Positions 12,793 to 60,622 of a stretch of 64,000 nucleotides of DNA are shown piece by piece (position 1 is the first letter of the stretch; the number at the start of each line of letters is the position of its first letter). The notes under the pieces were generated by a model. That model worked only from the letters and a program-made list of their open reading frames with translations. It ran no database searches and had not been told where the DNA came from. The position numbers and the translations under genes are program-made. This DNA is from a virus. Its lineage: Duplodnaviria; Caudoviricetes. Where the stretch lies: IMG/VR virus record IMGVR_UViG_3300013383_000004, positions 32,756 through 96,755 of that record; one strand, given 5' to 3'.

Positions 12793-12817
12793 TTTTTAAT
12801 GTTTAATTTATTTATTT

Positions 12818-15800: not shown

Positions 15801-17739
15801 AAATTAGGAGAGGATAGAACTTCTTCTAAGTGTACAGAAGATTCTTTGCAATATATACAAAAATTAATAGATTGTAAATTTACAATTAAACAACTTAGTA
15901 TAGTCTATTGTATATCAAAGAATAGTATGAAAGATATTATAAGAAATAAATCTTACACTCATTTACATTTGAATATAAAATATAATAATCCTACTGAAAA
16001 AAGATTTAACCATAAAATTATTGATAAAGATTTATATAATAAATTGAATAATTCTCTAAAGGATAATACCGTGCTAAATACACTTATTAAAGAAGGGTAT
16101 ATAAGTGTACAGTGTAACGCATAGTAATTGAAATAATATTACCAAGAGTTCCCAAGTTCCTTTTTAGTAAAAGGAATAAAATATATGCTGAACTATTGAG
16201 ATAATAAATCAATAGAATTAAAGGATAAAAAGCCTTTAAGATAACATACTTGGAATATCTTAATTATGGCAAGTCAGGTGAAGTTATCAGAATGGGCGAT
16301 GGTTTGTTTGCCCAGATGGAAGTAGCTAATACTATGTACTACAATAACTTCTCGCTTAAGCTTCTTGAAGATGCTCTTTATGAGCTGTCAGCAGCTAAAC
16401 TTAATATGAATGAAAGAATCTTTGTTATTAAGACTGGTGAAAGAGGAGCTATTCAGTTCCACAAGGCTATCCTTAATACAGTGTCTGGTTGGACTCAGTT
16501 TGTACTCAATGGGGATGCTCTTAAGGTAGTAGAGAAAACACAGAGTAATCTCCATGTTAACTCTCTTGCTGCTGGCTTCCAATTTGTAGAGTACAGAGCA
16601 CCTAATGGTGTTAGAGTTAAGGTAGAAGTAGACTCATTTTATGATGATCCAGTACAAAATAAGATACAGCACCCACTTGGGGGTCCTGCAAGCTCTTATA
16701 GATATGACATCATGGATATTGGTTCTATGGATCAACCTAATATCTTTAAGTGCCAAATTAAGGGTATGCCTGAAATCAGAGGCTATGAGAGTGGCTTAGC
16801 TGCCTAAGGTCACTTTAAACAAGGTTAATTGCTGGAAACTCTAAAACTTAATACTTCAAACATTTAAATATGGAAGAACAATGGAAAGAAATCCCTTATA
16901 CTAAAGGATACTATATATCAAACTTTGGTAGGGTGAAAATTGAGAAATGCCATAAATATCCAAATGGTGTTATCAAAGATAACAATTCTGGATTTTATGA
17001 GGATAAGGACGGTTACTTTAAATTATCATATAGGATGATTAATGGTAAAAGCACAGCTTCTTTTATACATAGATTAGTAGCTCAAGCTTTTATAGGCAAT
17101 CCAGATAATAAGAAGATTGTTAATCATATAGATAGTAATAGAAAAAATAATAAAGTAACAAACTTAGAATGGTGTACTGATAAAGAAAATGTATATCATG
17201 CCTTTATTAAAGGTAATAGAAAACATTGTTTAGATGTTCCTAAACAATCTAAATTAACACCTTATCAAATATCTCAAATAAATAATCTGAGACAATATTA
17301 TTCTTTAAGAAAGATTGCAGATTTGTATAATATAAGTTATACTTCAATGAAGAATGTAGTAATTAGATTAAAAAGATTAAGTCATGACAATCAGCAGCCA
17401 AGCATCTATGGTGAAAGCTACCACATAGATGAAGGTTCAACGACTATCCCTTATGGGAGTATACTACAAGCTAATGGTAGTGGAAATGCCTTGCCCACTA
17501 AATAGTGGTGAAGATATAGTCTAAACACTAGAGGAAACCTAGTGGAGTTAAACTCAATATAGAAGTTGCGTTCTATATAAAAATGTAATGTTAGGAATCC
17601 TTTCACTGGAGAGGTAAATATCCAGTATATGTCTCATGATGAGGATAGTGCAACAATTCATAAAATGGCAACATTTGGTATTTGTGTATTAGACCCAACG
17701 AGAACAATGTCATTAATTCCTGCTATTTTACAGGGTTAA
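12818..17739 (+). CDS. major capsid protein, spliced from 5 exons (12818-12999, 13541-13913, 15098-15364, 16253-16796, 17591-17739); 504 aa
   Basis: Exons sum to 1515 nt (504 codons + stop) and join as FPV|KEFEDD, ELSR|KVGD, NANG|EYLNYG, ESGF|RNPFTG, ending PTRTMSLIPAILQG*; matches the crAss-type MCP sequence as I recall it. Confidence 0.93.
13000..13540 (+). mobile_element. group I intron 1 in MCP (541 nt)
   Basis: P1 CCGU|UAA-AUC-UUAGCGG with U.G pair; P10 CUUA/UAAG; core AAUUGCUGGAA, AAUCAGCAGCC, GUUCAACGACUA, UAUAGUCU; ends in G13540. Confidence 0.92.
13097..13453 (+). CDS. intron-encoded basic HTH-like protein with no recognisable nuclease motif
   Basis: 118 aa, K-rich; HTH-like segment IKTIKRETGFFYSYILQIVKGKRY; no HNH, GIY-YIG or LAGLIDADG motif seen. 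Confidence 0.6.
   Translation: MGKYYTIKEYKEYFTTKNGKKAFITKNRVMLKRYKKLKYKKTNRLSVEDQEIEIQRGLRKILWKYYIEHKKIKTIKRETGFFYSYILQIVKGKRYPEQVNKYLLEIKKRLDNQQPNLL
13914..15097 (+). mobile_element. group I intron 2 in MCP (1184 nt)
   Basis: P1 GCCGU|A...UGCGGC; P10 GACCUU/AAGGUC; P4 AAUCGGUGAA/AAUACCGAG; P7 GAGAAUA/UAUUCC; ends in G15097. Confidence 0.9.
14067..14978 (+). CDS. GIY-YIG homing endonuclease with repeated HTH domains
   Basis: GFIYKVTNKVNGKSYIGQT, R.RQH, FHRAIQKYG, ERE..YI, GYNLT.GG; four HTH-like repeats in the C-terminal part. Confidence 0.92.
   Translation: MEGFIYKVTNKVNGKSYIGQTRNTVEFRWRQHYKAKDNKYFHRAIQKYGKENFEIITLEKCEVGKLNDREIFYINKYDTFNNGYNLTKGGSTYTPNKKCLNGYIEVDDKYEEIKGMYLAGYSTAKISCLYNVDRHCISNILKSLGVKVRKSEKININAQEFEELVSKYQTGYSLKSLAKEYGCTDVGLKEYLQKRGIDIKKKFSILKDEPKQKELINDYLKGTLKLKEIQQKYHCEYRTFLKVLSNHGIKQRGCSGNFKLSDKDSLEIIKLFKEDKKVIELAKLYNVDKCTIYNLLKRYHVNY
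15431..15462 (+). promoter_or_regulatory. candidate sigmaA-type promoter inside intron 3 driving the HNH gene
   Basis: TTG (15431-33), 21-nt spacer, TACCTTTG (15455-62), ending 14 nt before ATG 15477. Confidence 0.55.
15477..16124 (+). CDS. NUMOD4-HNH homing endonuclease
   Basis: MEIWKDIEG...YQVSNLGRIR (NUMOD4); IHRLVA..F...VNHKDGNKNNN...NLEWC (HNH); likely start ATG 15477. Confidence 0.92.
   Translation: MEIWKDIEGFRELYQVSNLGRIRRKDNHKVLKPLILTKGYKGVRLYYTKKDAVTKKIHRLVAKYFIGNPLNLPQVNHKDGNKNNNKAINLEWCSNEYNMNHAITNDLIKLGEDRTSSKCTEDSLQYIQKLIDCKFTIKQLSIVYCISKNSMKDIIRNKSYTHLHLNIKYNNPTEKRFNHKIIDKDLYNKLNNSLKDNTVLNTLIKEGYISVQCNA
16797..17590 (+). mobile_element. group I intron 4 in MCP (794 nt)
   Basis: P1 AGUGGCU|...GGUCACU; P10 CCUAA/UUAGG; core AAUUGCUGGAA, AAUCAGCAGCC, GGUUCAACGACUA, AAGAUAUAGUCU; ends in G17590. 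Confidence 0.92.
16870..17505 (+). CDS. NUMOD4-HNH homing endonuclease
   Basis: EEQWKEIP...YYISNFGRVK; IHRLVAQAF...VNHIDSNRKNNKVTNLEWCT..EN..HA; C-terminal HTH. Confidence 0.92.
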   Translation: MEEQWKEIPYTKGYYISNFGRVKIEKCHKYPNGVIKDNNSGFYEDKDGYFKLSYRMINGKSTASFIHRLVAQAFIGNPDNKKIVNHIDSNRKNNKVTNLEWCTDKENVYHAFIKGNRKHCLDVPKQSKLTPYQISQINNLRQYYSLRKIADLYNISYTSMKNVVIRLKRLSHDNQQPSIYGESYHIDEGSTTIPYGSILQANGSGNALPTK

Positions 17740-17743
17740 TATA

Positions 17744-17779
17744 AAAGGGGGAGGTATTCTCCTCTCCCTTTCATTTTTT
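17744..17779 (+). terminator. intrinsic terminator after MCP
   Basis: AAAGGGGGAGG-TATTCT-CCTCTCCCTTT hairpin followed by a T-rich tract. Confidence 0.7.
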
Positions 17780-17802
17780 AATTTTATTGGAGAGGTATAA
17801 AG

Positions 17803-18786
17803 ATGGCAACAGAAACTAAAATTATAGTAGATGATACTATGGAAGAGAATATGATTGAAAAACCTATTGAGAAGTCTAAATCCAAGCAAAGAGTTAAAGC
17901 AAAGGAAAAAATAGAAGAACAAGGGCTTATAAACTGTCTTAGAAATGAAAAAGTTATTATAAGACATATCCCAAGACAAAGTAGGATGGTAAGTAATCCA
18001 AAACATATTTTATATGGAGGTATGGCAGAAAATGCTAAAAGAACATTTGTAGTACCAAAACTTTCCTCTGGAAGATATGTTAATGTTCTTACGGATGCTG
18101 AGAAAGACTATCTTGAAGATATTATGGGTCTTGAAGTTAATGCAATGAGTATTTATAATAAGGTCAATAATTTTTGGGATGATAGTAATGAACAGGGTGT
18201 TTCTAAAGTAACATTAACTAAACAAGATAATTTTCTTAATCTTAGTGATCCTGAAGATTATATTAGATATAAAATACTTTTAGCTAATAAAGATTATATC
18301 GCACCTTCAATGAAGGAACTTGAAGATAATCCTAAAGCAACTTATCAATTTGTTATTATTTCTGAGGGAGACGAGACCAGGGCAGCTAAGAAGGGAATGA
18401 CTACTATTATGCAATGTTATACTTTGTATGGTAAACTTGAAGATGACGTAGATGCCCTTAGAGTAATTGTTGAAACTCTTACAGGTGTAACTATTCATCC
18501 TAATACAAAGAAAGATTTCCTTCAAACTAAAGTCAATGAGCTAATTCAGAGTAATAGTAAAATGTTCTTAAAAATAGCTTCTGATCCTCTACTTCAAACT
18601 AAAGTGCTTATTAAAAAGTCTATTGAAGCAGGATTAATTGCTCATAGGGGCAACCAGTATTATATTAAAGAAGGAAATATTCCTATGTGTGATAATGGCG
18701 AGCCTACATTAAATGTAGCTTCTCAATGGCTCAATCAGCCAAAGAATCAAAATATTAAATTTAGTTTAGAAGCTAAACTTAAATAA
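17803..18786 (+). CDS. conserved crAss-like protein downstream of MCP
   Basis: 327-aa ORF in conserved syntenic position; function unknown. Confidence 0.6.
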   Translation: MATETKIIVDDTMEENMIEKPIEKSKSKQRVKAKEKIEEQGLINCLRNEKVIIRHIPRQSRMVSNPKHILYGGMAENAKRTFVVPKLSSGRYVNVLTDAEKDYLEDIMGLEVNAMSIYNKVNNFWDDSNEQGVSKVTLTKQDNFLNLSDPEDYIRYKILLANKDYIAPSMKELEDNPKATYQFVIISEGDETRAAKKGMTTIMQCYTLYGKLEDDVDALRVIVETLTGVTIHPNTKKDFLQTKVNELIQSNSKMFLKIASDPLLQTKVLIKKSIEAGLIAHRGNQYYIKEGNIPMCDNGEPTLNVASQWLNQPKNQNIKFSLEAKLK

Positions 18787-45455: not shown

Positions 45456-48400
45456 TTAACAAAACTTTTTATATTCTTTATTTATTAACTCTTCATTAAA
45501 TTTAATACCCAAATCATTAAGTCTTTTCTTCATAAAATTTTTGACTTGTGATTCATAAGCTTTTTTATCACTTTCACTTTTATTCTTATAGTTTTGAATA
45601 GTTTTTTCAGCATCTTCATAAGTTCTACCATTCATCATGTAAATTCTATGTAGTAAATCTATCTGTTCTTGATTACTCATAGTAGAATTATCTGACTTTG
45701 CCTCTTCATTAACCAAAGAATTTTGAACTTCTGATTCTGTATTATCTTCTAATGTCTTAGTAGTAATTTCAAGAGGTTTCTTTATATCATTAGTACTAAT
45801 TTCTAGATAATCATGATTACTTCCCAAAGGACTAATTTCTTTGTATTCAATAGCATTATCTTTTAACAAGACTTGTTGATACAGTTTATAACCATCTTTT
45901 ACTTTCATTTTAAAATAAGGGGTATTCTGTAATTCTGTCACTTCCCCTTCTTTATAAACCTCAAAATTTCCATTTTCAAGTTTTGCCATTGTAGCCTTTT
46001 TTATAGGAACAAGTTTATTATTATCCCAGTTATTCCTAATAAACTGGTCCATAACTACTTCTGGAGAAGTGGTAGGAAGTACTCTAAAAGTATCAGTATA
46101 CCCGTCAATTCTTTCTTTAACGTATACAGGAACTAAGCTCATAAAGGATTTAGGAGAAAATCCTAATCCTGCCCTAAAGAAACAATATTTAAAGAGTTGC
46201 TTAGACAGCTCTGGATTCTCCTTATGTAAGTCAATCCAAGCGTTACCTAGTTTCTCTTTTTGAGCAGTATCAAGACCTGTAATTTCTATTTGAAGGGTTG
46301 CTCTTCCTGTCTTATCAGTACCATACTTAATAGATTGAATTAAGAAATTATCTTTATATTTTTTCTTATAGTCTTTCTTCATAAATTCTATAGGAAATTC
46401 TGAAATAGTTCTACTTAATTCCTTAGCATCTATTACATTTCCTGCAACAGCTAAATAAGACTGGTAAAAATCACTTAGACTACTAAGAATTTTTCTATCA
46501 TTAAGTATAGTGTTACCTAAAGGGGTTTCTCCAATATAATCAATAATATTCCTAAATCCTGTACTGTTAGCAGGCATATTACTAAATATTTCTCTAGCTA
46601 ATCCTAAAGTTCTATTAAATTGTTTTAATATAGGATGAGCATTAAAAATATCCATAATGCTAACTTCTTCTCCATAAGAATCAAGAATATTACTTTCTGA
46701 AGAGAGTTTATTTAACTTATATTCAGTAATGAGATTATCAACAATTAATGGGCCTACAGCACTACTAATAGAATTAAATCTAGTAGCAAAAGTAGGCATT
46801 CTCATGGCATCTGCTAATCTTTGAAAATTTCTAAATGCTTTAAGAGTTTTATACTCAATCCTTACATCATCAGATTTTAAGCCTTCAATTAATTGTTCTT
46901 TGGTTAAACCTTCCTCATTTAATACACTGTCTTCATTAATATCATGCTCTTTTTCTATTTCATTAATTCTTTCTTCTATCACCTTACTTAGAGAAGTAAA
47001 TCCTGTAATATTCTCACTACTAAATCTTTTAAGAATATCAGATACAGCTCTTTGAGATAAGAAAAGTGCAGCATCATCAAAAGGCATACCCATTCTTATA
47101 AGAGTATTAAGTATATTAGCAGTACTACTATTAATGTTCATTAAATTAAGTACAGGATCTTTAACAGCATCAGCAGCACTAGCAACTAAACTACCAAGCA
47201 CTTTACCTATAGATTGCCCTGTACTGTCTATCCTACCATCAATACTCATATTACTACCAAAGGTCATTCCTGCTACAGTAAATGGTTTTTCAATCATGCA
47301 AGCATTATCTACATTTACCATATAACCTTCATTTTCTATAACAGCATGAGCAATTCTATTAACTGCAAATATACCAATAAGAGAGCTGGCTGCACTGTTT
47401 TGTTTGTAAAACTGTACATGAGTATCTATGAACATAAGATTTTTATTTTTATTGCTTAAATCTTTCAGTTCATCAGTTGACATCTTACTTAATTCCTCGT
47501 AACTTTTATCTGTAGTTTTATATGCAGTTACAAGATAACCCATTCTTTTTTGAGGTTCAAAGCCTCCAGGATTTAGCATCTCAGCACAACTAGTTTCATG
47601 TGTTAATACTTCATAGGTCATGTCAACAATCTTATTGTTTCTATATATCCTTCCTTCTGTAGGCTTATTTACAGTAAAAGCATTTTGAATATATAATTTA
47701 AGAAGTCTATCATATGCACTACTAGGCATTGACATAAATCCTTGTGCAGCCCTTTGAGTCATGTATGTTTTATCAAAAGGATTATCAAGAAACATTTCAA
47801 TTAGTTCACTAAGTTGCTTTTTTGATTCATAACTTATTTCCTTACTTTGAGAGTTAGTTAAATCATCATAAAGTATCTTATGAAGGTTAGATCTACTGGT
47901 TTTTGTTCTAGAAATATCATAATCTTTTCTCATAAGATACATTTTGTCTACCATTTATACTTTATATTACTATAAAGATTAGACTATATCTTTACAAATA
48001 AATTGCAATGTGTATTTCCACATTTAAGTGTACTCACAGAGTTCTTCTTCTCCGTGTTAAATCATAAGTAATCTTATGTAACATAGATGGTACTTGTATT
48101 ACATAAGGTTTAACAATATCAATGAATTTTAATCCTTCTTTAGTACCACAACATAAAGAGTAACTATCTTCTTTTTTACCTTCATGGTACATATAAAAGT
48201 TTATATCCCACTGCTCTTTAAAGTAATTTATTATTGTTTGAACTTCTTGTTTAGGTTCACAAATACTTATTTTAATATAGAGACCACAAGGTCTTCCTTT
48301 GTCCTTTCTAATATTAATATGCCCATCATCCATATACCATATAGCTATCTCTCTAGCACTTAATCTATTTAAAAGCTTTCTATTACCAATTATCTTTTTT

Positions 48401-51400
48401 CCTTTATAAACTACTCTTCTAAGTACTTTAATAAAAGGAATTGTATTAAGCTGAGTATAATAAACAGGAACTCCTATATTAAATCCTTTAGTTTTTATAT
48501 AAGAATTAAGTCCATTATTTCTTATACCACAATTCTTTAATTGGTTAATTTTCCACTCTAGATAGTCTTTCTGTGCTTCACAATGAGCTATCTTGAATAC
48601 GTTGTTATTGCATATTGTTCCATCACCTAAAAGTAATCCAATTAATAAATTTCTACTTTCTTTGTTAAACTTTGTTTTCATAACGAGAATCCGTATGTTT
48701 AAATTATGATTTAATTAGTCGTTGAACCTTTTAGCATTTCAGCTAACTTGGCTGCTGATAACCCTTAGCATTACCTATTAGGGCTTCCCAGCAATTAACA
48801 CATTTTTACTTCAACATAGAATTTATCGAAATCACTACCTGTAAGCAATGTAATATCATTAGGAAGCATAATACCATCTCCTGCCTCTCTTGGCAAGAAT
48901 CCTACAATTTTCACAGGGGCCATTGAATACTTTGCTTCAGTAGGGATTCTATAACTAACCATCTTTAATAAGTCTGGATCAAGAGCTTCTATAGCTTCTA
49001 TACTAATATTACCATCTTTATCAGTGAATTGATTAAATAAATCATTAGTATAAATAGGAGCAAATGCTTCAAAGTAAGCAATACCTCCTTGATGTTCTTT
49101 TAAATATTCCTTATAAGATAGTGTGTTACTATTATTCTTTACCCCTTTATATTTAGCATTAAATTTATCAGATTGTGAAAGTTCTCTTTTAATAGGACTT
49201 TTCTCATACTCTTTTCTTGTTTTTAAGAGTCCTCCATTCTTATCTTTAAATCTAATATTAAGCTGTCTTGAAGTTCCAAAGTTAGTGACTTGTACAACAG
49301 GACCACCAGCTATTTCTTGTTTATTAACTCTGTTTTTAATTATAGAGTTGATAAGTTGTTCAATTCTCTTACTTTGAATTGGATCTCCAAGAGGTATTCT
49401 AAATCTTCCATCGGCATCAACAGAACAAGCCTGAAGCAAATCTATTCCATATCTAGGGCTAGATAGTATTTCTCTTTGTAGTATTTTACTTATAGCAATA
49501 TTTCTATCTTTAGCACTATAACTATCTAAATTAAGAGTTTCACTTAGTTCTGATATACTATTTTCAATATTATCAGCTATAGTTTGTTCATACTCTTTTT
49601 TAAACTCTTCAGCAGATAGTTTTTTACCTTCAACCTCATAAGTCACATCATTACCAAAACTATCTTTAGTAGCTAACTCAGAAGGTATAATATATCTAAT
49701 TTGAGAACCATGGGATTGCTCATGATCTTTAAAATGTTCCGGAACTTCTTGTTGTAAGCAATAGTCTTCAAAAGGTAATTCATGAACATAGGTTTGATTA
49801 TAATTTCCTGTTCTACTATTGATAATAGTTTCTTCGGTCTTGCCTGTTTCTGAATTAGTTGTTTGTATTGTTTTAGGAGATGTTTCATATAAACAAGCTT
49901 CTAATACAGCTTTTGCTTTAGCTTCCCCATTGGCATCATTAGCATACTTATTAATATTAATTCTACCCATCAAACCTGATTTTACAGTAGATTCAAATTG
50001 AACAGTATCAATACCATCTTTTTTGTAATTGCCATTCTCATCATAATGACTTTCTTCCATTACTTCGTAAATAGCTCTAAGAAGATTGGGCTTTCCTGTA
50101 TATTCATTTTGGAGAATAGCATCAGCCATTATAAGAAGGTATTCAGAATTTTTATTTTGCACTCCCATCTTTATAGTACTAAGAGGAGCATTAACAACAC
50201 CTGTTGGTTTTGATATTTGACTATATACAAAAGGCTTTAATGGTTGAAAAGCTATGCTTAAATCACTGTAGTTATAATTTCCTTTTCTTAGTTTTTGATA
50301 TACTTCTTCTGCTTTTTTATCCCACTTACCAAAGATAAAAGCCTTCTTTCTATAGGAAGTAGGACAAGAATATCCTTGTGCATCTGCTACATTTATATGT
50401 CTAAATGCTCCATCTTTTCCTACAAGGGATTCCTTTAGTACTCTATATCCAGCTTTCTCTGACTCAGGAGCTTCTGCTATCTTTCTATCAAAAACAATAG
50501 ATACATTATCTATAATGTTGGAAACAAAGTTATCCCAATCTTTAAGATAACAAGTTCTTTCTTTTCCATCAGAAACCCTTCTCCCCTCATAGTCTACAGC
50601 TTCTACATTACCTCTGATACCGGGAGCATGAATTTGAGCTAATCTTTTTTGTAAATCTTCAGCATCTTTATAAAAAGCAATGTCTGTTATAGTCATCTCC
50701 ATAATATTCATTGCAGCAAAAGTATCATTCCATACAAAATTCTCAAGATTAGCTATGATCTCTTCTTCTGTTTTACCTATGTCTGTTATCTCTTTTACTC
50801 CTTCTATAAGACCAGAATCTACCCATTCTTTTACTATTTTAGAGGCTCTATTGTCCATAGCTTCAAATATAGCTTCATTAGCAAGGGAGTACAATCTATT
50901 TTCATCTACTTCTTTTCCATGAATTTTATCACTGATAAGTTTTCCTAATTCACTGTTTTTATGATCTCCTATAAGATAATCATTCATAAAATCAAGGAAA
51001 CAGAATTTTCTTCCATTAGAATCAAAATTCTTTATAAACCTAGGATCTTTTTTATCAAGGTTTCTCATTAAAACAGTTTGGATTCTACTTAGTTCTTGGT
51101 TAAATATATCCATTAAACCATTAGTAATAGTTTCTTTATAATTAGACCCCCTTTCACTATAGAATCTTATAAATTCAGAAGACGGCTTATTAGACATCAT
51201 AGGCACTCTAAACCATGCTGGGACTCTTGATTGTTTACTATTAGCACTTTCTGAGAAATATTCTGTTAATATAGAAAGTGTGTATTCCATATCATTCATA
51301 TTTCTCATATAGTTATGCTGATTGAAATTAAGTTGAACTTTATGCTTGAATACTTCTCTAGCTTTACTGTCTGTAGCTAAAGTTCTGAGCCAGCTGTTTC

Positions 51401-54400
51401 TCCAACCTCTTTCAATATCATTGCCTGTATGAAACCAATCAAAATTACCATATTCACTCATTATAAAGGTATCAAAAGATTCTCCTGATTGATTAAATTT
51501 AATCATTAATTTAGATAGATAAGAAGGAGTAATATAGCTTTGATACATTTTTCCACTATCATAAAAAGCAGATACAGCAATATCTTCTAAAGATTCAGTG
51601 ATAGGGGTTAAAAACTCTCTTACATTACCATTTATACTGCCTTGTGCTTTAAATGTAAAAGGCTCATAAGTAGCATTATCAAGATTATTTTTAAGAGATT
51701 TTATCATGTAAGTCAGAGCACTGTACATCCTTTTATAGTTATCAAGAGTTAGATTACTTTTAACCATATCAGGAGTTACATAGTAACCAAGTAGATTAGA
51801 GATATATCCTAATATTTTAGCTGCTTCATTCTTATTTTTTTCTTGAGATAAATCATTATCTGTGTGGTTAAATTTATCTAAGCTTTCATAGGCTTTTTGT
51901 AGTTCATTAAAGGCTGTTTTATTAATTCCTTCTGAAGTGAATAAAGGATGCTCTCCAATTTTATATTGGGTAGTAACTTGTGACATAGCCTCTTTAAGAG
52001 CAGGATGTTCATTTACTTGGATGCTTTTATATTTTCCACCATCTTTTATTACAACAGAGTAAGGTTGAAAGTGCTTACAAAAAGTTCCATAAAACTGTCC
52101 TTGAAAATCTGTTTCTTTGCCAGAAGTATCAGATAATCTATCTATAATTTGTTTTACCCAAGGATTATCTGTTTGTTTTTCTTGTAATTTAACTATCATA
52201 TCAGCCAAACTTAAAGAACCCTGTGTCCACCTAAGAATAGAATTAGTAGCTTCTCTTACATTAATTCTCTCATATATCCCAAATTCTGATTGAACTTTAT
52301 TACCATTACTATCTAATTTATAGCACTTTAATAAGGCTCTTTTAATCATCTGAGACATAGTCCCTAATACATCTTGACATCTAGATTCAATTTGCCAATG
52401 CTCTTGTAGGCTTCCTTCTGTCTCTTCTACATCTGCTTGGTCATTAGATTCATTAAAATTATCAACATCCCCTATTATATTTTCATTAACTTCAGTAGCC
52501 TTGCCATCTTGTGTAGAAATAATACTGAAATCTTCTAAGTTAAGGAGTGTATCTTGTGCAAGAAGCATAATAGCCTTCCAATTATCTGTAATAGCAGTAG
52601 CTTTATCTATAGTATCATAATTATCAAAATCATTGTGCTCAGGAGAGAATTTTTGTCTACACATTTCTATTATGTTATTTACTCCTATAGTTCTAACTAC
52701 ATCAGCTCTAGACATGGAGGAAAAGTCTTTATTAGTACCATCTGTATTCTTAAACCTATCACCATAAATAGTTTTAGCTAACTCTGGATTCTCTTGTAAT
52801 TCAGTAATATGGTCTGAAATCCAATATACTGCTTGTTCAGCTATATGCCTTATTTCTGTTGCAGAAAGAAGGTCATTATCTAATAAATCATCAATTTGAT
52901 GCATTGTTTCTTCTTGTTTTGATATATATAAATCTTGTTTATTACTCTCTTGTGTGTCTTCTGTAATTTCTGTTTCAGCAGTATCTTCAGAATACTCTTT
53001 CTCTATTTTAAGCATAGTTCTAGTTTGCATAAGAAGCCTTGGAAACTCTTTGCCCCATTTACTTTTATCTTGAGTATGAGTTAATTCTGCATCTCCTGTC
53101 TCAAGTAATCTTATAACTGCCTGTTTATTTTGAGAGAAACTATCTAAAATTAATTGTCCCATTAAAGGGGAGCTGACTTTATCCCATGCTTTTGTATCTA
53201 AGTCTCTAATTTTTCTACCTATAGCTCTGGCTGTAGCTCCATCTGCTTGCTCTAAACTTTTTAAAATATTTGTTTTCTCAGTTTCTGACATACTACTATA
53301 CCCTAATTTTTGAGCTTGAAAAGCCCCTTCAACAGTTTTGAAATGCCCCTCTATAAATACTTTAAAATTACCTGTATTTTTTGCATAAAAAGGTCTTTCA
53401 GCAAAATTACTCAAATCAGCATTTTCACCAGTACCTGCATAAATATTAATAGTTTTATCTGAGGAACTAGGAGCATAATATATATTAACACCATATAGTC
53501 TCTCATATTCTTCTACAGCATCATATAAACTCATAGTACCATCAAGAACTTGTTTATAAAGACTTGAGTCTCTAATTTCAAGAATGTCTAATAGATATTC
53601 ATCTTGTTCTCTTAGTTCTTGCTCTATAGCTTCTTGCTCTTCTCTTAATAGTTCTTCATAGGAAATCTGTTCTGCATATTCCTTTTCTAAAGCTTCTATT
53701 CTTTGCTGTTCCCTAAGTTCAGCATTTTTCTTCCTAGTAGCATTTCTTTTATTGATAGTCTCTTGAGTTACTTTTCTATTAACTTCCCACCCATTAAACT
53801 TATAGTTATATTTACCTATTTTTAGTAAACTCTCATAACCACGTATTTTATCCTCTGCTATTTTCTTTCCTTCGTCAGTATTTGATGTATGGATTATATA
53901 TTTAGTAGAAGTAAGACTGCCCTTTTTATACATCTTAACTCCATATGGGTCACTTCTTTGAGCTTCCACTAAATTATCAATAACTAAACTAGGATAACCT
54001 GATTTACTTTGTGTTGAGTTACCCTTTTCAGAAACTTCATTATGAAATCTGTTTAATTCTATTAAGCTGCTCTCAAGTATAGATCCTTTAATATTAAGAC
54101 CAAAGTTCTTATTAAAAAGACGAGCTATAGTATCAATAATACTGTGAAGTATAGATCTATTAGCTTTAGGATCTTTATACTTAGCTAATTCTCTTTGCAG
54201 TTTTTGATTAGAAATTATATCAGAAGCAAATTCATCAAGACTATTTTTGAAATAAGTAAGACCTGAGTCATTATTATCTTTAAGTGCATTTTTTGCTAAG
54301 TCCCATAACCTACTCATTTCATTATAGAATCTAACCTCCTCTTTTGTTCCTCTTCCTGCTTCAACTTTCCTAAAAGTTGAGATTGTTACAGAATGTTCTA

Positions 54401-55073
54401 ACTCATGGTGTATTTTAGCCTTAAAGAGAGTATCTGATGCTCCTTTTACATGTTTCCATTGAGCCATATTTTCAATAAGAGAAGGTAGAAACAGAGTTAC
54501 CTCAAACTGGTTTGCTTCTGCTACTGATTCTCCTTTAGTATAGGGATTAACTTTAATACTATTAGTAGCATTAATATATGGGACTCCAATCCTTTCTAGA
54601 ACTTGAACTGTGCTGTTTAATAGAATATCTCTATTACTTTGACTATTAGCATTTCTCAACTCATAAAACATTCCTTGATTTAAATTTACTGGAATGAATG
54701 AAGGTCTTCCAACTTGTACTGCAATAGAACCATCCTTTAATTCCACAGTATTGACTGAATCTCTTCCATATATAGATATGGCTTTATCTAGGTATTCATT
54801 TAGAGCTGAATCATTTGTTGAGAATATGTGTGGTTTTAAATACTTTTCTAACCACAAAGTTACCCTATTATCTTCTTTATAATTAGATAAAGAAGCTTCA
54901 AATGGTTTAGGGCTTAGTTCTGATATAATCTCAGATGCTGTAGGATAAGCTCTTCCTTCTAGAGTTCCCTCATTTAGTTTTTTATGTAGCACCATTTCAA
55001 GTGTTCCCGAAGCTATGTCTAAACTATTTAAAAGGGATTTAAATTCTTTTGAACTTGTATTAACACAACTCAT
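45456..55073 (-). CDS. virion RNA polymerase polyprotein, spliced (exons 55073-48825 and 47951-45456); 2914 aa
   Basis: Motifs ED..KR, DAQGY, KPF, K.S, SAVK-like STVK, YRIPTE; splicing restores the catalytic TGSDFD|VDK (DxDxD); C-terminal D..KDP.L..MN.N motif in exon 2. Confidence 0.9.
47952..48824 (-). mobile_element. group I intron in virion RNAP (873 nt)
   Basis: Minus strand: P1 UUCGAU|A...UGUUGAA; P10 UCUAU/GUAGA; core AAUUGCUGGGAA, UAUCAGCAGCC, GGUUCAACGACUA, AAGAUAUAGUCU; terminal G at 47952. Confidence 0.93.
48034..48681 (-). CDS. LAGLIDADG (two-motif, family 2) homing endonuclease
   Basis: LLIGLLLGDG and IAIWYMDDG motifs; H...Q.DYLEWK. Confidence 0.9.
   Translation of the reverse strand: MKTKFNKESRNLLIGLLLGDGTICNNNVFKIAHCEAQKDYLEWKINQLKNCGIRNNGLNSYIKTKGFNIGVPVYYTQLNTIPFIKVLRRVVYKGKKIIGNRKLLNRLSAREIAIWYMDDGHINIRKDKGRPCGLYIKISICEPKQEVQTIINYFKEQWDINFYMYHEGKKEDSYSLCCGTKEGLKFIDIVKPYVIQVPSMLHKITYDLTRRRRTL
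53005..53455 (-). other. NADAR (YbiA-like) domain within virion RNAP
   Basis: LSNFAERPF, FKTVEGAFQAQK, ARAIGRK, W, LLETG..L, D..KWG..F..LLM..R pattern; boundaries approximate. Confidence 0.75.
54050..54620 (-). other. zincin-like (HExxH) metallopeptidase-like domain within virion RNAP
   Basis: IHHELEH followed by Y...SLDEF.S....N..LQ..L; boundaries approximate. Confidence 0.55.
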
Positions 55074-55099
55074 AATAATATCTTAATTAAGTTTTAGTG

Positions 55100-55130
55100 C
55101 AAAGTTATATAAAAATACTTACTATACCAA
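55100..55130 (-). promoter_or_regulatory. sigmaA-type promoter for RNAP operon
   Basis: Minus strand TTG (55130-28), 20-nt spacer, TAACTTTG (55107-55100). Confidence 0.75.
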
Positions 55131-55161
55131 ATGAATAAAAGAAAATGTTAAGAGTTATAAC

Positions 55162-55196
55162 AAAAAAAATAAGGGAAGAGCCAGTTACTCTTCCCT
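55162..55196 (-). terminator. intrinsic terminator ending the accessory operon
   Basis: AGGGAAGAG/CTCTTCCCT 9-bp stem followed on the minus strand by a U-run. Confidence 0.75.
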
Positions 55197-55207
55197 ATAT
55201 TAAAATT

Positions 55208-55318
55208 TTACTTTTTTTGACTTCCAGGCCTTGTGCCTGCATTTTTACTCTGTTGATCCATTTTGTCGTAAAAATCAATACGACCCTTCAATTTATTAAT
55301 TTTATTCTTGTATTTCAT
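55208..55318 (-). CDS. 36-aa basic peptide (not in ORF track)
   Basis: MKYKNKINKLKGRIDFYDKMDQQSKNAGTRPGSQKK; overlaps the upstream gene end and stops just before the terminator. Confidence 0.55.
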   Translation of the reverse strand: MKYKNKINKLKGRIDFYDKMDQQSKNAGTRPGSQKK

Positions 55319-55529
55319 AATCCTTTACTGTAAAAGTATCTCCTAATTCATAGTCTTCTACCCTATAACTGTCAATGATTAAATTTTCATCTCTAATCCA
55401 TTCAAACTGTTCTTCTAATGAAAGAGACTTAAATTCTTTATATTCCTCATCATTAAGGATAAGTTCAATATGGCCATTTCTAAGAAATCCTTGAACATAT
55501 TCACAATTACATATTATCTTCTTCGCCAT
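55302..55529 (-). CDS. hypothetical protein
   Basis: 75-aa ORF in a tightly overlapping operon. Confidence 0.6.
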   Translation of the reverse strand: MAKKIICNCEYVQGFLRNGHIELILNDEEYKEFKSLSLEEQFEWIRDENLIIDSYRVEDYELGDTFTVKDYEIQE

Positions 55530-55740
55530 TAATTTGATTTTTAAGAGATTTAAGAAGTTCTTCTCCTTTTTCTGTTATTACATAATGTGAATTAGAAAGC
55601 TCCTCAATGTCATTAAGAACTTTCATAAAGGCGTTACCGTCCCCTTTATTAATAAATTCACCCATATCCAATTCTTTACACTCAATATAGATTCCCTTAT
55701 CAAAGAAATGTAATGTTGCTGAAATTTTTTCTCCTGTCAT
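55507..55740 (-). CDS. hypothetical protein
   Basis: 77-aa ORF with overlapping start/stop. Confidence 0.6.
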   Translation of the reverse strand: MTGEKISATLHFFDKGIYIECKELDMGEFINKGDGNAFMKVLNDIEELSNSHYVITEKGEELLKSLKNQINGEEDNM

Positions 55741-55949
55741 ACCTTTTTAAATTGGTTATAAGTATGATTTTTAATAATAGGCTTATTATTTTGTTTATTT
55801 AATTTAGGAGTACCGTCATCATTAAGAATAAGAATTTTACAGAAAGAATTTCTTACTTCTTTAATTAACCCAATACAACCTAAATCATCAGAATGGGAGA
55901 AAAGAATTTTTACTTTCTCCCCTTCTTTATAGTTTTTATAATTTTTCAT
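55737..55949 (-). CDS. hypothetical protein (KOW/SH3-like)
   Basis: GEKVKI......G..G.I.EV pattern. Confidence 0.5.
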   Translation of the reverse strand: MKNYKNYKEGEKVKILFSHSDDLGCIGLIKEVRNSFCKILILNDDGTPKLNKQNNKPIIKNHTYNQFKKV

Positions 55950-56011
55950 TTTAATTCTATATAATGAGTGTAAGCTGCATTACTATAATAAAAATATAAA
56001 GTTACTTTCTA

Positions 56012-56422
56012 CTACATGTGGCTTCTGGCAGTTTTAAGAAATTCTTTACATTTCAATAAGTGTGCCTCATCTTTATTTTTTATATACTCATAAAACTCCT
56101 TAAAAGAGTTTATTAAATAGGAGTTTGCTACTTCTTTTTCAGTAAATACTATAGAAAGTATTTCATCAATTCCTTTCTTCTGGCCTGCTATACTAGAAGA
56201 TTTCATTGTGTAATCAGATGAAAAATTAATAGGAGCATATGATGATAGTGGTATGCTACCCTTTATAATCTGATCTTTGACTTTTGGGGTAACATTAAAT
56301 GTATTATAGGTAGTGTGATTATGTATTTGTTCATCATTCAAAATATCTATAATATCGTCTTTCATAATAATAGGTCTGCCATTTATAAATACAGGCTCAC
56401 TATAAATATATTTATATTCCAT
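56012..56422 (-). CDS. hypothetical protein
   Basis: 136-aa ORF. Confidence 0.6.
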   Translation of the reverse strand: MEYKYIYSEPVFINGRPIIMKDDIIDILNDEQIHNHTTYNTFNVTPKVKDQIIKGSIPLSSYAPINFSSDYTMKSSSIAGQKKGIDEILSIVFTEKEVANSYLINSFKEFYEYIKNKDEAHLLKCKEFLKTARSHM

Positions 56423-56436
56423 AGTTATTTTTATTT

Positions 56437-57144
56437 TTAATATTCATTAGTACTATAATCAATAAAATAAAGATACTCTTTACTTTCTAAAAGGTCAGTA
56501 AGAACGTATTTATCGAAAATCTCCCGATTAATTTTCATTGCCTCTTTTCTTAAGTCAATTTTAAAAATATTTCCTACTTTTACTTGACCATGAAGCTCAT
56601 GTGCTGGAGGTGTCCATGGGGCGACTAGAGCGAACTTATATCCTCTGTCATATAGTTTTTGGTTGTTATTACATACTGACCCCATATAGTCCCCATACGC
56701 CTTTATATCTACCCTCCAAAGATTTGGATAGAGATCACAAAGATTGGGATTTACTTTCTCAATATTTCCAATAGGAGTGTTTACTTTATCTACTGATAAA
56801 TTGAGTTTCTGGGCTTTAAAAGCAGATATAGTATTAAGTGCTTGTGATTTAAAAGCTCTTTCACTACCCTTCTCTAATACTATTCTATAGATAGCAGTAG
56901 GACAGGCAGTTTTCATATACTCACAAATCTCTTTAAGACTATTAAAGCACTTAGTAAGATTTACTGCACCATGACAAGTTCTCCAAATATTACCATCTCT
57001 ATAGACTCTTATATCAAAGAATCTAACACCCCACTTGTATTGCTCTTCAATACTTCTTCTTTGGGTCTTCCAATACTTCTTAGCGTGATTATACCACCAA
57101 GAAGTACTTTTACAGTAAGTAAATGAATCGTGACTTCCAATCAT
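56437..57144 (-). CDS. PI-PLC X-domain-like phosphodiesterase
   Basis: IGSHDS, TQ...I.EQ...GVRFFDIRV, CHG: both catalytic His-containing motifs of PI-PLC-X. Confidence 0.75.
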   Translation of the reverse strand: MIGSHDSFTYCKSTSWWYNHAKKYWKTQRRSIEEQYKWGVRFFDIRVYRDGNIWRTCHGAVNLTKCFNSLKEICEYMKTACPTAIYRIVLEKGSERAFKSQALNTISAFKAQKLNLSVDKVNTPIGNIEKVNPNLCDLYPNLWRVDIKAYGDYMGSVCNNNQKLYDRGYKFALVAPWTPPAHELHGQVKVGNIFKIDLRKEAMKINREIFDKYVLTDLLESKEYLYFIDYSTNEY

Positions 57145-57162
57145 AAATTTAATTTTTAATTA

Positions 57163-57537
57163 TTATAAAAACTCTTTTGGTAAATATATATTAAATATAT
57201 TTTTTGCCTCTTTAAATAATGGGGCTATCTGTGACGGCTTAAATCCTGCTATGCCACATCCAATGGGAGTTACCAAAAACCTCAAATCAGGGTGCTTTCT
57301 TGCAAAATCAATAAACTCATCCACATAAGGCTTGATAGTCTCCACTCCTCCTTGCATAGTAGGAATGGCGTAAGACTGTCCTTGCAGCCCTGTTCCTTGT
57401 CCCCATACAGCCCCGAATTTCTTATATGCCGTCAATGCAGCCCCTCCACCATGCATTCCTTCCAAATTACTTCCAAAGACAAACACCTCATTAGGAGCTA
57501 ATTTAGAAATATATGATGGAGCTATTCTAATATCCAT
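57163..57537 (-). CDS. macrodomain-like phage protein
   Basis: VFVFGSN..G.HGGGAA..A and F.VTPIGCGIAG, resembling macrodomain N..GGG and IG.G.G loops. Confidence 0.65.
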   Translation of the reverse strand: MDIRIAPSYISKLAPNEVFVFGSNLEGMHGGGAALTAYKKFGAVWGQGTGLQGQSYAIPTMQGGVETIKPYVDEFIDFARKHPDLRFLVTPIGCGIAGFKPSQIAPLFKEAKNIFNIYLPKEFL

Positions 57538-57538
57538 T

Positions 57539-58444
57539 TTAAATTAATTCTGGGATTAAATTATAAAATACTTGATATCCTTGGGTAACAATCTTTCTCC
57601 TCTCTGTTCTAATCTCTACAGGATGTTTAGAATCAATAATAAGAGTAGGAGTATATTCTTTTATAACTATTGAATTACATTCACTTTTATCAGAAAAATC
57701 AATATATGCACTATCAAGTATGTTTATTATATTATTATCCCCGTCAATATATCCACGTTGATAAACAATATTAATAACATTCATATTTCCTACAACATAT
57801 ATTTTTGTAAATAATTCTGAATTAAAATCTTTACGTTTAGCATATCTAGTGGGAGTACTTAATACATTTCTATTTCCTTTGATATATACATATGGAGAGC
57901 ATATTTTTAAAGTTTGTTGAAAATAGTTATTATCTCCGATAGAATAGATTATTTGAAAATCTGCTTTAAACCTACAATTACGTCCAATATTATAAATTCT
58001 ATTTATGAAAGATGCAATAACATATATAGAGTGCTTATCATTTAACAAACATTTAATACCTACATGAGAAGTAGTTTCAAAATTCTTTTTGGGTACATAA
58101 AAAGATGATATATTTACATATTTATCCTTTTTATATTCTCCGAAATTATGAATAGATGTTTTAATAAGATCCGCAATAGTCACTTCTTTTATAAATCTTA
58201 TTTTAGAAGAAACTATTTTTGAATCTTCATTTATTGTATTTTCACCAATATTTCCACTTGCTTCTACTTTAAAGTATCTATCAGTAGGATCCCTATAATA
58301 CAGAAGACAATCTACTGGAAATCTACAAGAATGAAATCCTGAACGACATAATGTTATTTCATCTGAATGTTTAAAGGTTTTTCCTATTTCATATTGAAAA
58401 CCTCTACATTTTAAATCTGAATGAGTTCCTTTATATGTAATCAT
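57539..58444 (-). CDS. DUF7666-like protein, paralog A
   Basis: YKGT..DLKCRGFQYEIGKTF...LC.SGFHSC..P.DC..YY; C-terminal YIxGxxN repeats. Confidence 0.65.
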   Translation of the reverse strand: MITYKGTHSDLKCRGFQYEIGKTFKHSDEITLCRSGFHSCRFPVDCLLYYRDPTDRYFKVEASGNIGENTINEDSKIVSSKIRFIKEVTIADLIKTSIHNFGEYKKDKYVNISSFYVPKKNFETTSHVGIKCLLNDKHSIYVIASFINRIYNIGRNCRFKADFQIIYSIGDNNYFQQTLKICSPYVYIKGNRNVLSTPTRYAKRKDFNSELFTKIYVVGNMNVINIVYQRGYIDGDNNIINILDSAYIDFSDKSECNSIVIKEYTPTLIIDSKHPVEIRTERRKIVTQGYQVFYNLIPELI

Positions 58445-58848
58445 ATTTCAAACAAATTATCTCCTCTATTTATAATAATATCCTCTATGTCAGACTGTAA
58501 ATCTACTATAGAATTAGGATTAGTTATTTCCAATGGATATACTGAAAGATATAGATGTGTTGTGCAATCTTTCAATGATATACCGTCCCAAGTAACAGCA
58601 TCATCATTCTCTTTTGTATAATCATGAAAGTAAGCATATGTCAAACCATACTTTTTATTCTCATCACTTCTAAAAGAAGAATCTTTTGAACCATATTTGT
58701 AATAAAAATTATGCACATATGCTAAGGCATCCTCCCCTTTCTCAAATACACGTAATATGCAATTTGAGAGATATGGTACCCTTCTGTTCTCTCTTTCTTT
58801 ACAAGTCTTTAAGCTACATTTGTTAGCTACAACAACGAATACTTTCAT
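58441..58848 (-). CDS. hypothetical protein
   Basis: 135-aa ORF, ATGA-coupled on both sides. Confidence 0.65.
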   Translation of the reverse strand: MKVFVVVANKCSLKTCKERENRRVPYLSNCILRVFEKGEDALAYVHNFYYKYGSKDSSFRSDENKKYGLTYAYFHDYTKENDDAVTWDGISLKDCTTHLYLSVYPLEITNPNSIVDLQSDIEDIIINRGDNLFEI

Positions 58849-59705
58849 ATGTTATTTCTCATTTTAATTGCAATCTCTCTTGCCATTGGATGAGCGTCAT
58901 TAGCACATCTTTGATAAAAGAAGTTGTCCCACACATCTTTAAATCCACAAGATATTAATTCTGATTTAACGGATAAAGGAAGCACTTCCCTTGCTTGCTG
59001 TGGAGAACAATGTAGATTTTTTAGCAATCTTTTATATGTCGCCTCCACATTATAACATTGATTGATGAAATTGCCTTCCTTCGTCTCATCATCATAATAC
59101 TTGGATTGTAGGAAATCAGAATACTTCTTGAACTCCGTCTCCTCCATATCACACCAATAAGGAATAATGAAGGTTATCTGATTGTCAAACTTGTCTTTAT
59201 TATAAGAGCAATACCTTGTGCTCTCTGCGATATGGGACAGCCCTACGTGTGTCCTGAACTCATCCATAATACCCCTGTTGAGTACCATATGGCAAGTATA
59301 TCTCTTTTCAAAGAGCTTGTCGTCATATTCCACAAGACAATCTTCTACATAAGGAAATTCCTCACATAATCGTAAGAAATACCTATAATTAGTAGTGACC
59401 CACATTCCATCATCAGAGATACTCGCCCTCATCCAATCAGTGCTGTAATCATTTCTTACAGACATCTTATAGACTATACTGTCATAATCCTCTTCATCCA
59501 TTACAAGATGCACCGTGCCAAACTCCAATGGTCTATAATGACCACGCTTGATAAGCATATCCACAAATTTCTCATAAGAGTCATCTGTAATCTTATCCTC
59601 GGATTTATAAGACACCCTCGCACACCTCTCAATGAACTTCTTTATGCCATTCATTGAGAAGTCTGTTTGGGTAATCCATTCACATGATTGATTTATAAAC
59701 TTCAT
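58845..59705 (-). CDS. thyX: FAD-dependent thymidylate synthase
   Basis: ARVSYKSE, GH..PLEFG, EFRTH..LSH..ESTRYC (ThyX motif variant), QQAREVLP, R....AHP. Confidence 0.9.
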   Translation of the reverse strand: MKFINQSCEWITQTDFSMNGIKKFIERCARVSYKSEDKITDDSYEKFVDMLIKRGHYRPLEFGTVHLVMDEEDYDSIVYKMSVRNDYSTDWMRASISDDGMWVTTNYRYFLRLCEEFPYVEDCLVEYDDKLFEKRYTCHMVLNRGIMDEFRTHVGLSHIAESTRYCSYNKDKFDNQITFIIPYWCDMEETEFKKYSDFLQSKYYDDETKEGNFINQCYNVEATYKRLLKNLHCSPQQAREVLPLSVKSELISCGFKDVWDNFFYQRCANDAHPMAREIAIKMRNNI

Positions 59706-60622
59706 TCTACAAAATGTGGTATTAAATTAGTTAACTCAACATGACCTTTATAGGTCTTCTTATTACCATTTGCCTCAACTATTACTTCATTTTTAGAATC
59801 AAATACTAATTTAGGGATATATGAAGATATTTTAAGAATATTTGATTTAGATTTATCAGAAAATTCTATATACGTACAATCATATATTCTAAGAGTATTA
59901 TTTTCACCATCTATATATGCACGGCCAGTATCCACTATACATATATCATTTTCATTTCCTTTAACAGTAGTACGGAATGGATATTTTTTTCTAGGATTAA
60001 AATACATACTGTATAAATGATCATAAGGAACTGCTGTAAATAGGTTATTATCACCTTCAATGTATATATATGGATAAATGCATTTTGAGGTATGAGTAAA
60101 AAAGTTAGAATTGCCAATAGCATATATTTTTTCAAATATGCTCGTAAATCTTCCATTATCCCCAATAGTATATATATTTGATATTCTATTCGCTACAACA
60201 CATATATCTCTTTTGTTATTTAACACATTTTCAATAGTATAAGGACAACTATATCCTTCATACATTCTTTTAGGAATATAAAAATCAGTAAATATTTTAG
60301 TATTTTTTTTCTTTTTATATTTTCCAAAATTATGAAGAGTAGTTTCTATTAAATTCTTTACAGATATTTCTTTTAAGAATTTAATTTTGGAAGAGACTAT
60401 TTTATATTGAGAGTCCCTTTTATCTGTTTTTCCAAATGCTTCTACTTTAAAATATCTTTTATCTGGGCCTGAATAATAGTTTAAACAGTCTATAGGAAAC
60501 CAGCAAGAATGAAATCCTTTTTCACATAATCTAATAGTATCCTTTTCCTCAAAAGTCTTTCCAAAACTGTATTGAAAGCCCCTACATTGCATTTTAGAGT
60601 CTGTTCCTTTATATGTAATCAT
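59702..60622 (-). CDS. DUF7666-like protein, paralog B
   Basis: MITYKGT..MQCRGFQY..GKTF...LCEKGFHSC.FP.DCL.YY; collinear with 57539-58444. Confidence 0.65.
   Translation of the reverse strand: MITYKGTDSKMQCRGFQYSFGKTFEEKDTIRLCEKGFHSCWFPIDCLNYYSGPDKRYFKVEAFGKTDKRDSQYKIVSSKIKFLKEISVKNLIETTLHNFGKYKKKKNTKIFTDFYIPKRMYEGYSCPYTIENVLNNKRDICVVANRISNIYTIGDNGRFTSIFEKIYAIGNSNFFTHTSKCIYPYIYIEGDNNLFTAVPYDHLYSMYFNPRKKYPFRTTVKGNENDICIVDTGRAYIDGENNTLRIYDCTYIEFSDKSKSNILKISSYIPKLVFDSKNEVIVEANGNKKTYKGHVELTNLIPHFVE

Follow-up and report, generated by a model that had tools for sequence, protein, structure and literature searches.

A putative mobile group I intron encoding a LAGLIDADG endonuclease in the catalytic DFDVD motif of a crAss-type virion RNA polymerase gene

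Analysis of a 64,000-nucleotide stretch of viral DNA (positions 32,756 to 96,755 of the IMG/VR record IMGVR_UViG_3300013383_000004; hereafter, the window) indicated that 873 nt of its minus strand very probably constitute a mobile group I intron which carries a homing endonuclease gene and lies within the catalytic DFDVD motif of a virion RNA polymerase gene. The relevant minus-strand open reading frames (ORFs) encode 2092 aa (48795..55073), 215 aa (48034..48681) and 832 aa (45456..47954), and the boundaries of the insert could be placed to the nucleotide. Exon 1 ends GGT AGT GAT TTC GAT (G S D F D) and is followed at 48825/48824 by AAATTCTATG, the wider context being ACA GGT AGT GAT TTC GAT and then AAATTCTATGTTGAAG; at the opposite boundary (47952/47951), GTATAAATG gives way to GTAGACAAAATG or, in wider context, AAAGTATAAATG to GTA GAC AAA ATG. 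Joining 55073-48825 to 47951-45456 restored a single open frame of 2914 aa that reads ITLLTGSDFD/VDKMYLM across the junction (the stroke here and below marking the point of insertion), and the joined exons carry GSDFDVDK, a DFDxD metal-binding motif with V at the fourth position and in homologous context. The ligated exons would be expected to read GATTTCGAT followed directly by GTAGACAAA. The intron-less relative cr128_1 aligned without gaps to the joined exons over this junction in one frame, ITTLSGSDFDVDKMYIM (SGSDFDVDKMY), its own junction reading, SGSDFDVDKMYIM, being colinear with them. The 832-aa ORF opens, in frame with exon 2, on an ATG supplied by the final three intron bases. An initial annotation of this DNA had treated the 2092- and 832-aa ORFs as one 2914-aa gene, a view which the joined frame and the cr128_1 alignment bear out, and had held that the terminal ATG misleads gene callers; the GenBank coding sequences of cr116_1 and bajarodcaudo virus 1 do indeed start at the equivalent ATG.

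With the last 300 residues of exon 1, 77 phage records yielded matches to crAss-like 'putative RNA polymerase' genes, the closest being that of cr116_1 (Pamirivirus faecium, Steigviridae; 84%), and the same tail aligned to residues 1324-1377 of phi14:2 gp66 (PDB 6VR4; E 4e-11), the alignment ending TGSDFD. A Pfam scan of both polymerase exons matched no family, so that the identity of the polymerase depends on the 6VR4 alignment together with the phage records. In the phi14:2 polymerase 1361-DFDID-1365 is catalytic, replacement of any single Asp by Ala abolishing activity, and the fourth position of the motif is I or V in all crAss polymerases (bioRxiv 10.1101/2020.03.07.982082). Since the DFD/VD junction aligned to this catalytic DFDID, the insert separates the second and third metal-binding Asp, and the proposal in the initial annotation that the catalytic motif itself is split is consistent with both the structural alignment and the published mutagenesis. 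Judged from these comparisons, the host gene is that of a crAss-type, single-chain, virion-packaged RNA polymerase resembling phi14:2 gp66, and the carrier, on the same evidence, is a Pamirivirus-like crAss phage of the Steigviridae. In cr131_1 (L002 = NC_055902.1, Suoliviridae) the annotated ORF upstream of the intron (47198-60316) extends to ~13 kb, and a very long N-terminal region is fused there to exon 1. In three RefSeq records (NC_055868.1, cr50_1, 65825-80149; NC_055892.1; NC_055896.1) the homologues of the polymerase gene bear the name 'DNA helicase' or 'DprA-like DNA recombination-mediator protein', which probably derives from fused N-terminal domains or annotation transfer.

The 215-aa ORF within the insert matched Pfam family PF03161 (LAGLIDADG_2) over profile positions 2-168 of 168 (E 8e-25; 88.1 bits against a cutoff of 25), with the motifs LLGDG at residues 17-21 and YMDDG at residues 116-120, both motif Asp being present. 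Its C-terminal domain aligned to I-SceI (E 2e-4), the second motif falling over I-SceI FMDDG. A scan of IMG/VR conducted with this endonuclease yielded 80 loci, and three GenBank phages were added; 21 of the 80 LAGLIDADG loci (L060, L061, L063-L083) were excluded because polymerase homology was lacking nearby, and were regarded as more distant endonucleases that reside in other genes. Besides the window, a homologous intron occupied the same polymerase motif at 58 loci, giving 59 in total and 49 distinct sequences.

Within the window the stop codon of the endonuclease gene lies in a hairpin, CACGGAG...CUCUGUG (48035-48056, minus strand), the counterpart of which stays paired in relatives despite sequence changes, and the start codon stands in the 3' arm of a possible second hairpin (Table 1), an arrangement also present in L007, L008, L009 and L028. 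With both codons placed in hairpins, the endonuclease ORF seems to be framed by RNA structure, by which its translation may also be restricted. In a number of relatives the LAGLIDADG frame is interrupted under translation table 11, leaving ORFs of 46-161 aa (L002/L027 of cr131_1, L010, L014, L017, L018, L023, L028-L030, L038 and L062); their tblastn matches are still full length, and the interruptions could reflect either decay of the endonuclease or recoded stop codons of the type already known from some crAss groups.

Identification of the surrounding RNA as a group I ribozyme depended in part on its pairing with the exons. The guide GUUGAA (48815-48810) pairs at six of six positions with exon-1 UUCGAU to form a P1 helix with a terminal U.G pair, and the adjacent UCUAU (48820-48816) can, when read by eye, pair with exon-2 GUAGA as a candidate P10. 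P1 scored 6/6 in 36 and 5/6 in eight of the 49 unique introns, the guide of the other five lying beyond the scanned 45 nt, and in a shuffled-leader control only 5% reached 6/6; furthermore, the guide sequence covaries with the choice of Ser, Gly or Ala codon in the exon. The codon preceding the intron ends in U at 59/59 loci, and the 3' nucleotide of the intron is G at 56/59 loci, plus L050 with a corrected boundary; the boundaries inferred for L048 and L049 lack a terminal G.

The two halves of the core were each recognised when a 901-nt segment was scanned with the Rfam model Intron_gpI (RF00028), the P3-P7 half at 48802-48692 (32.7 bits, E 2e-6) and the P8-P9 half at 48090-47960 (28.8 bits, E 3e-5); an equivalent E-value scan over 3 kb returned noise only. 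Further structural data came from 44 distinct introns, aligned after removal of their ORFs and folded with RNAalifold, which recovered P1, P3, P4, P5, P6, P6a, the pre-ORF hairpin, P8 and P9. Over 50 pairs, standard pairs accounted for 93.5% of cells, against 34-44% when the partners were slid by 1-3 columns, and compensatory double changes were recorded in 33 of the 50. The P3 helix, formed across the ORF, comprised 97% standard pairs with compensatory changes at five of its six positions, every pair of P8 and P9 exhibited such changes, and P7 (GACUA/UAGUC) was invariant in 44/44 aligned introns. The group I intron reported at 47952-48824 in the initial annotation, and its description of the ORF therein as a two-motif LAGLIDADG, thus agreed with the Rfam halves, the covariation, P1 and the omega-G in the one case and with the Pfam match and both motifs in the other.

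Two other versions of P3, UUAAUU/AAUUAA directly after P7 and the 3' strand chosen by Rfam, CAUACG before the ORF, were considered and dropped, since covariation across every lineage was confined to ACACAU (48013-48008). Stops in all frames outside the ORF, together with the group I core, ruled out an intein, a group II intron and a programmed frameshift. The ORF and its flanking hairpins sit between the P7 5' strand and the P3 3' strand. Introns of subgroup IA have extra pairings, P7.1/P7.2, in this same interval, and the architecture looks IA-like, a tentative assignment that comes from the placement of the ORF and hairpins.

Table 1. Positions of the polymerase exons, intron elements and endonuclease gene in the window.
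Feature	Position	Strand	Evidence
Exon 1, virion RNA polymerase gene, 2083 codons	48825..55073	-	Sequence, joined frame, 6VR4 alignment
Group I intron (putative), 873 nt, preceded by U, last nt G	47952..48824	-	Rfam halves, covariation, P1
Internal guide region	48810..48820	-	P1 score, exon-codon covariation
P3 5' strand AUGUGU (48803-48798), then J3/4, P4, P5, P6, P6a	48726..48803	-	Rfam model positions 51-156, 32.7 bits; RNAalifold, pair counts
J6/7 and P7 5' strand, UCAACGACUA	48716..48725	-	Rfam, pair counts
Possible hairpin CAUACG...CGUUAUG, endonuclease start codon in 3' arm	48679..48697	-	Read from sequence
LAGLIDADG homing endonuclease gene (predicted), 215 aa, D20 and D119 in motifs	48034..48681	-	Pfam, I-SceI alignment
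P3 3' strand ACACAU, pairs over ORF with 48803-48798	48008..48013	-	Covariation
P8 hairpin (48007-47993); J8/7 and P7 3' strand AAGAUAUAGUC (47992-47982); P9 hairpin (47977-47960)	47960..48007	-	Rfam second match, 28.8 bits
Last three intron bases AUG, omega-G at 47952	47952..47954	-	Sequence, ORF list
Exon 2, virion RNA polymerase gene, 831 codons plus stop, starts GTA GAC AAA (V D K)	45456..47951	-	Sequence, cr128_1 alignment

Comparison of the carriers provided an indication of mobility. The same intron is present at the same site in cr116_1 (90.7% identity), and it recurs in bajarodcaudo virus 1 (73%) and in cr131_1 of the Suoliviridae (72%). Intron DNA is 62-74% identical to that of the window where the flanking polymerase segments share ~20-35% of residues and the flanking exon DNA of those carriers is at the background level of 55-60%; the endonuclease protein is likewise 70-84% identical across hosts with polymerases at 20-35%. 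The carriers belong to the Steigviridae (the window and cr116_1), the Suoliviridae (cr131_1 and L013, the nearest named relative of the latter being Cohcovirus cr50_1) and relatives of the marine phage phi14:2 (L042). By comparison, the motif is uninterrupted at no fewer than 234 IMG/VR loci, of which at least 154 align over the window's junction, and the intron is absent from cr50_1, the exon protein of which is nevertheless 78% identical to that of the intron-bearing L013. When the window's 22-nt joined site was compared with the 212 distinct intron-less sites among the matches listed, between 3 and 9 mismatches were recorded, mostly 6-8 and 3 in the nearest. A patchy distribution combined with similarity across families is the usual signature of a homing intron, and points in this instance to the same behaviour. 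A survey of the insertion site in Crassvirales, as advocated in the initial annotation, thus disclosed 58 further intron loci beside the at least 234 uninterrupted ones, and in addition a hot spot with four registers across families which that annotation did not contain.

The four registers differ in the codon boundary at which the motif is interrupted. Register A, that of the window, interrupts it as DFD/xD (19 loci), register B as D/FDxD (26 loci), register C as DF/DxD (13 loci) and register D as DFDI/D (one locus, L050); L015 has a 5' end of register C, but its 3' splice site could not be placed. In every register the codon before the intron ends in U, being GAT, TTT or ATT. The Asp codon adjoining the intron in register A is GAT in 19/19 loci, in contrast to the first Asp codon of the motif, which lies off the splice site and is GAC in 15/19; the latter codon is also GAC in 82% of the intron-less alleles among the matches listed. 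The guides correspond to the registers, being GUUGAA or GUCGAA in A, GUUCGAACC-like in B, GGAGUC in C and GAUGUC in D, and within register B the guide tracks the paired codon (TCGGAT/GTTCGA, GGGGAT/GTTCCC, GCGGAT/GTTCGC and TCCGAT/GTCGGA). In L053-L059 (register C, IMG/VR contigs of 94-174 kb), ~40 extra nucleotides stand between the 5' splice site and the guide, and P5/P6 carry large extensions; the polymerase of these loci gave only one weak match among GenBank phages (28%, MT835470), and they may belong to a large-genome crAss group.

A maximum likelihood tree of intron bodies (47 rows, P4 to P7' including the ORF, with the guide and 3' tail left out) required at least eight register changes against a minimum possible of two, the starred branches alone forcing several. 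L009 (C) is the sister of the pair formed by the window and cr116_1 (A), with L008 (B) joining next, and L020/L021 (B) are nested beside L013/L016/L019 (A), while the short 5' leaders look register-specific across body clades. We infer from this pattern a probable exchange of bodies, each consisting of ribozyme core plus endonuclease gene, among ends that are specific to a register, with patch gene conversion as the likely route. Because the same ~20-bp site is destroyed whichever register is occupied, a single endonuclease specificity may suffice for all of them.

According to the mechanism favoured here, the pre-mRNA would have to self-splice to yield any active polymerase. P1, formed between exon UUCGAU and guide GUUGAA with its U.G pair, would set the splice site, with omega-G as the last intron nucleotide; without splicing, the message would be translated as far as DFDKFYVEVKMC and a stop, and the product would have two of the three Asp only. 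The LAGLIDADG protein, as a monomeric two-domain enzyme of the I-SceI type, would most likely cut the uninterrupted DFDxD-coding DNA of co-infecting relatives, after which the intron would be copied in by repair (homing). Several points weigh against such an account. Splicing in vivo is deduced from the DNA sequence, and the activity and target of the endonuclease from its family membership. A whole-window scan with RF00028 at the gathering score of 50 bits gave no match, both halves scoring below it, probably because the 648-nt ORF and the hairpins between P7 and P3' break the model. Among the matches listed there was no intron-less allele near the window's own exons, the best reaching ~51% over 57 aa, and recent homing into the window's own lineage can for this reason be proposed only tentatively.

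A broader, tentative proposal is that the 15 nt coding for DFDxD form a four-register homing hot spot, in which shared endonuclease/ribozyme bodies would move by gene conversion during co-infection between register-specific ends, made up of guide sequence and 3' tail and located after GAU, UUU, GAU and AUU, the endonuclease serving both for homing and for the exclusion of intron-less gut crAss competitors. The element of competition in this proposal, that the endonuclease, as was inferred in the initial annotation, is also an interference device which cuts the polymerase gene of intron-less crAss competitors too diverged to repair from the donor and thereby lowers their yield, is plausible but unsupported, and on balance rather unlikely. 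It has a precedent in the jumbo phage PhiPA3, whose gp210 reduces PhiKZ progeny 3.7-fold in competition (PMC11620839), and the target gene here is essential, with a product that must be packaged. The exons of the carriers are ~20-35% identical, which would make for poor repair from a diverged donor, as argued for PhiPA3 and PhiKZ, and the intron family is spread over families that share gut Bacteroidales-type habitats. The likeness is nevertheless partial: the initial annotation was right to cite interference by the PhiPA3 intron endonuclease, but that enzyme is of another class, an HNH nickase, and acts at another subunit and another site. Moreover, because intron-less sites differ from that of the window, by 3 of 22 nt in the nearest and by 6-8 in most of the 212 among the matches listed, the cutting of real competitors is uncertain, and every observation is explained by plain homing.

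Loss of mobility, with an intron that still splices and a LAGLIDADG protein that has no cleavage activity and is kept as a maturase or as a decaying passenger, was judged improbable. LAGLIDADG proteins can be maturases, and the truncated table-11 ORFs of L002, L010, L014, L017, L028, L038, L062 and others suggest decay, or else recoded stops; the label 'endonuclease maturase' was moreover applied by Yutin 2021 (PMC7886860). The ORF of the window is, however, intact at 215 aa with both motif Asp, its protein is far better conserved across hosts (70-84%) than the polymerases (20-35%), and the polymorphism of presence and absence together with the spread across families points to recent mobility. 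That the gene is truly split, its 2092- and 832-aa polypeptides assembling without RNA splicing, is highly improbable: both pieces open with ATG starts and are so annotated in GenBank relatives, and polymerase genes in several pieces are known from some crAss groups (Yutin 2021, PMC7886860), but the catalytic triad would then be spread over two chains, of which one would carry two Asp and the other a single one, nine unrelated residues would be appended to exon 1, the ATG of the second piece is missing in many relatives, where introns end ACG, GCG or TCG, and the compensatory ribozyme core (44 relatives) and exon-matched guides make sense only under selected splicing.

Exact copies of the core strings UCAACGACUA (J6/7-P7) and AAGAUAUAGUC (J8/7-P7') were also located on the plus strand of the window, at 13460-13469, 17437-17446 and 17511-17521, the two strings standing 75 nt apart at ~17.4-17.5 kb. 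Such an arrangement is compatible with one or more group I introns of this general type that contain no ORF; an Rfam group I scan of 12300-18300 at E <=0.01 gave no match.

Elements of this kind are known, and their presence in the relevant gene block has already been glimpsed. Yutin et al. 2021 (PMC7886860) recorded many group I introns in core genes of the Delta and Zeta crAss groups, drew in the transcription gene block (legend to their Figure 3) a LAGLIDADG labelled 'intron-encoded endonuclease maturase', and noted disruptions inside DxDxD in the Zeta group that were partly ascribed to 'yet unknown expression mechanisms'; alpha-gamma genomes were stated to be without such insertions, an account repeated in a 2023 review (PMC10136315). 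That paper contains neither splice junctions nor a ribozyme analysis for this site, as against the junctions, four registers and occurrence in the Steigviridae (beta group) described here. A full-text literature search for LAGLIDADG introns in Crassvirales RNA polymerase returned only papers on other phages, and, as far as the literature searched goes, the exact DFD/VD junction, the Steigviridae occurrence and the use of four registers with matched guides appear not to have been described.

GenBank entries for relatives (cr116_1, bajarodcaudo virus 1 and cr131_1) divide the gene into two hypothetical proteins, with an endonuclease or a further hypothetical protein in addition, and the exact junction would restore the catalytic subunit of the polymerase with which crAss-phage infection begins, with production of an essential, virion-packaged enzyme made dependent on RNA splicing. 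The intron would also be a marker of DNA exchange among crAss families that must have shared host cells, and its four adjacent registers, matched guides and exchangeable bodies offer a compact natural system for the retargeting of an intron and its endonuclease within one site. If the hot-spot proposal is true, part of the 'unknown expression mechanisms' of polymerase genes disrupted at DxDxD would be explained; should the endonuclease cut alleles without the intron in diverged phages, interference between phages could be put to the test among the most abundant human gut viruses.

With respect to known systems, a model for interference between co-infecting phages is gp210, encoded in the virion RNA polymerase gene of the chimallivirus PhiPA3 (Birkholz et al., Science 2024, PMC11620839). 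It differs from the present protein as an HNH nickase from a LAGLIDADG, and its host gene encodes a beta-like subunit of a multisubunit RNA polymerase (in the region of E. coli RpoB D675), where a different Asp pair, and not DFDxD, is concerned. Interference has been shown for PhiPA3, and import into the phage nucleus matters there, whereas for the crAss intron it is conjectured. The monomeric LAGLIDADG enzymes of the I-SceI type (PF03161) share with the 215-aa protein two motifs ~100 residues apart on one chain of ~215-235 aa and a gene inside a group I intron; the similarity to I-SceI itself is weak (E 2e-4, confined to the C-terminal half), and the host is a phage as opposed to a mitochondrial rRNA gene. 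Phage group I introns with homing endonucleases in essential genes are exemplified by T4 td/I-TevI, the DNA polymerase introns of SPO1, SP82 and Bastille (I-HmuI/I-BasI) and Twort orf142, with which the present intron has in common a self-splicing ribozyme (here predicted), a peripheral endonuclease ORF, a conserved coding site in an essential gene and a patchy occurrence among relatives. HNH and GIY-YIG enzymes dominate among phage endonucleases, in contrast to the LAGLIDADG found here, and the host gene in this case is that of a crAss-type single-chain virion RNA polymerase. In SPO1 and Bastille, according to work cited in PMC11620839, related introns also occur at nearby sites of one conserved region; the homologous introns of crAss phages, by contrast, use four consecutive codon boundaries of one 5-codon motif.

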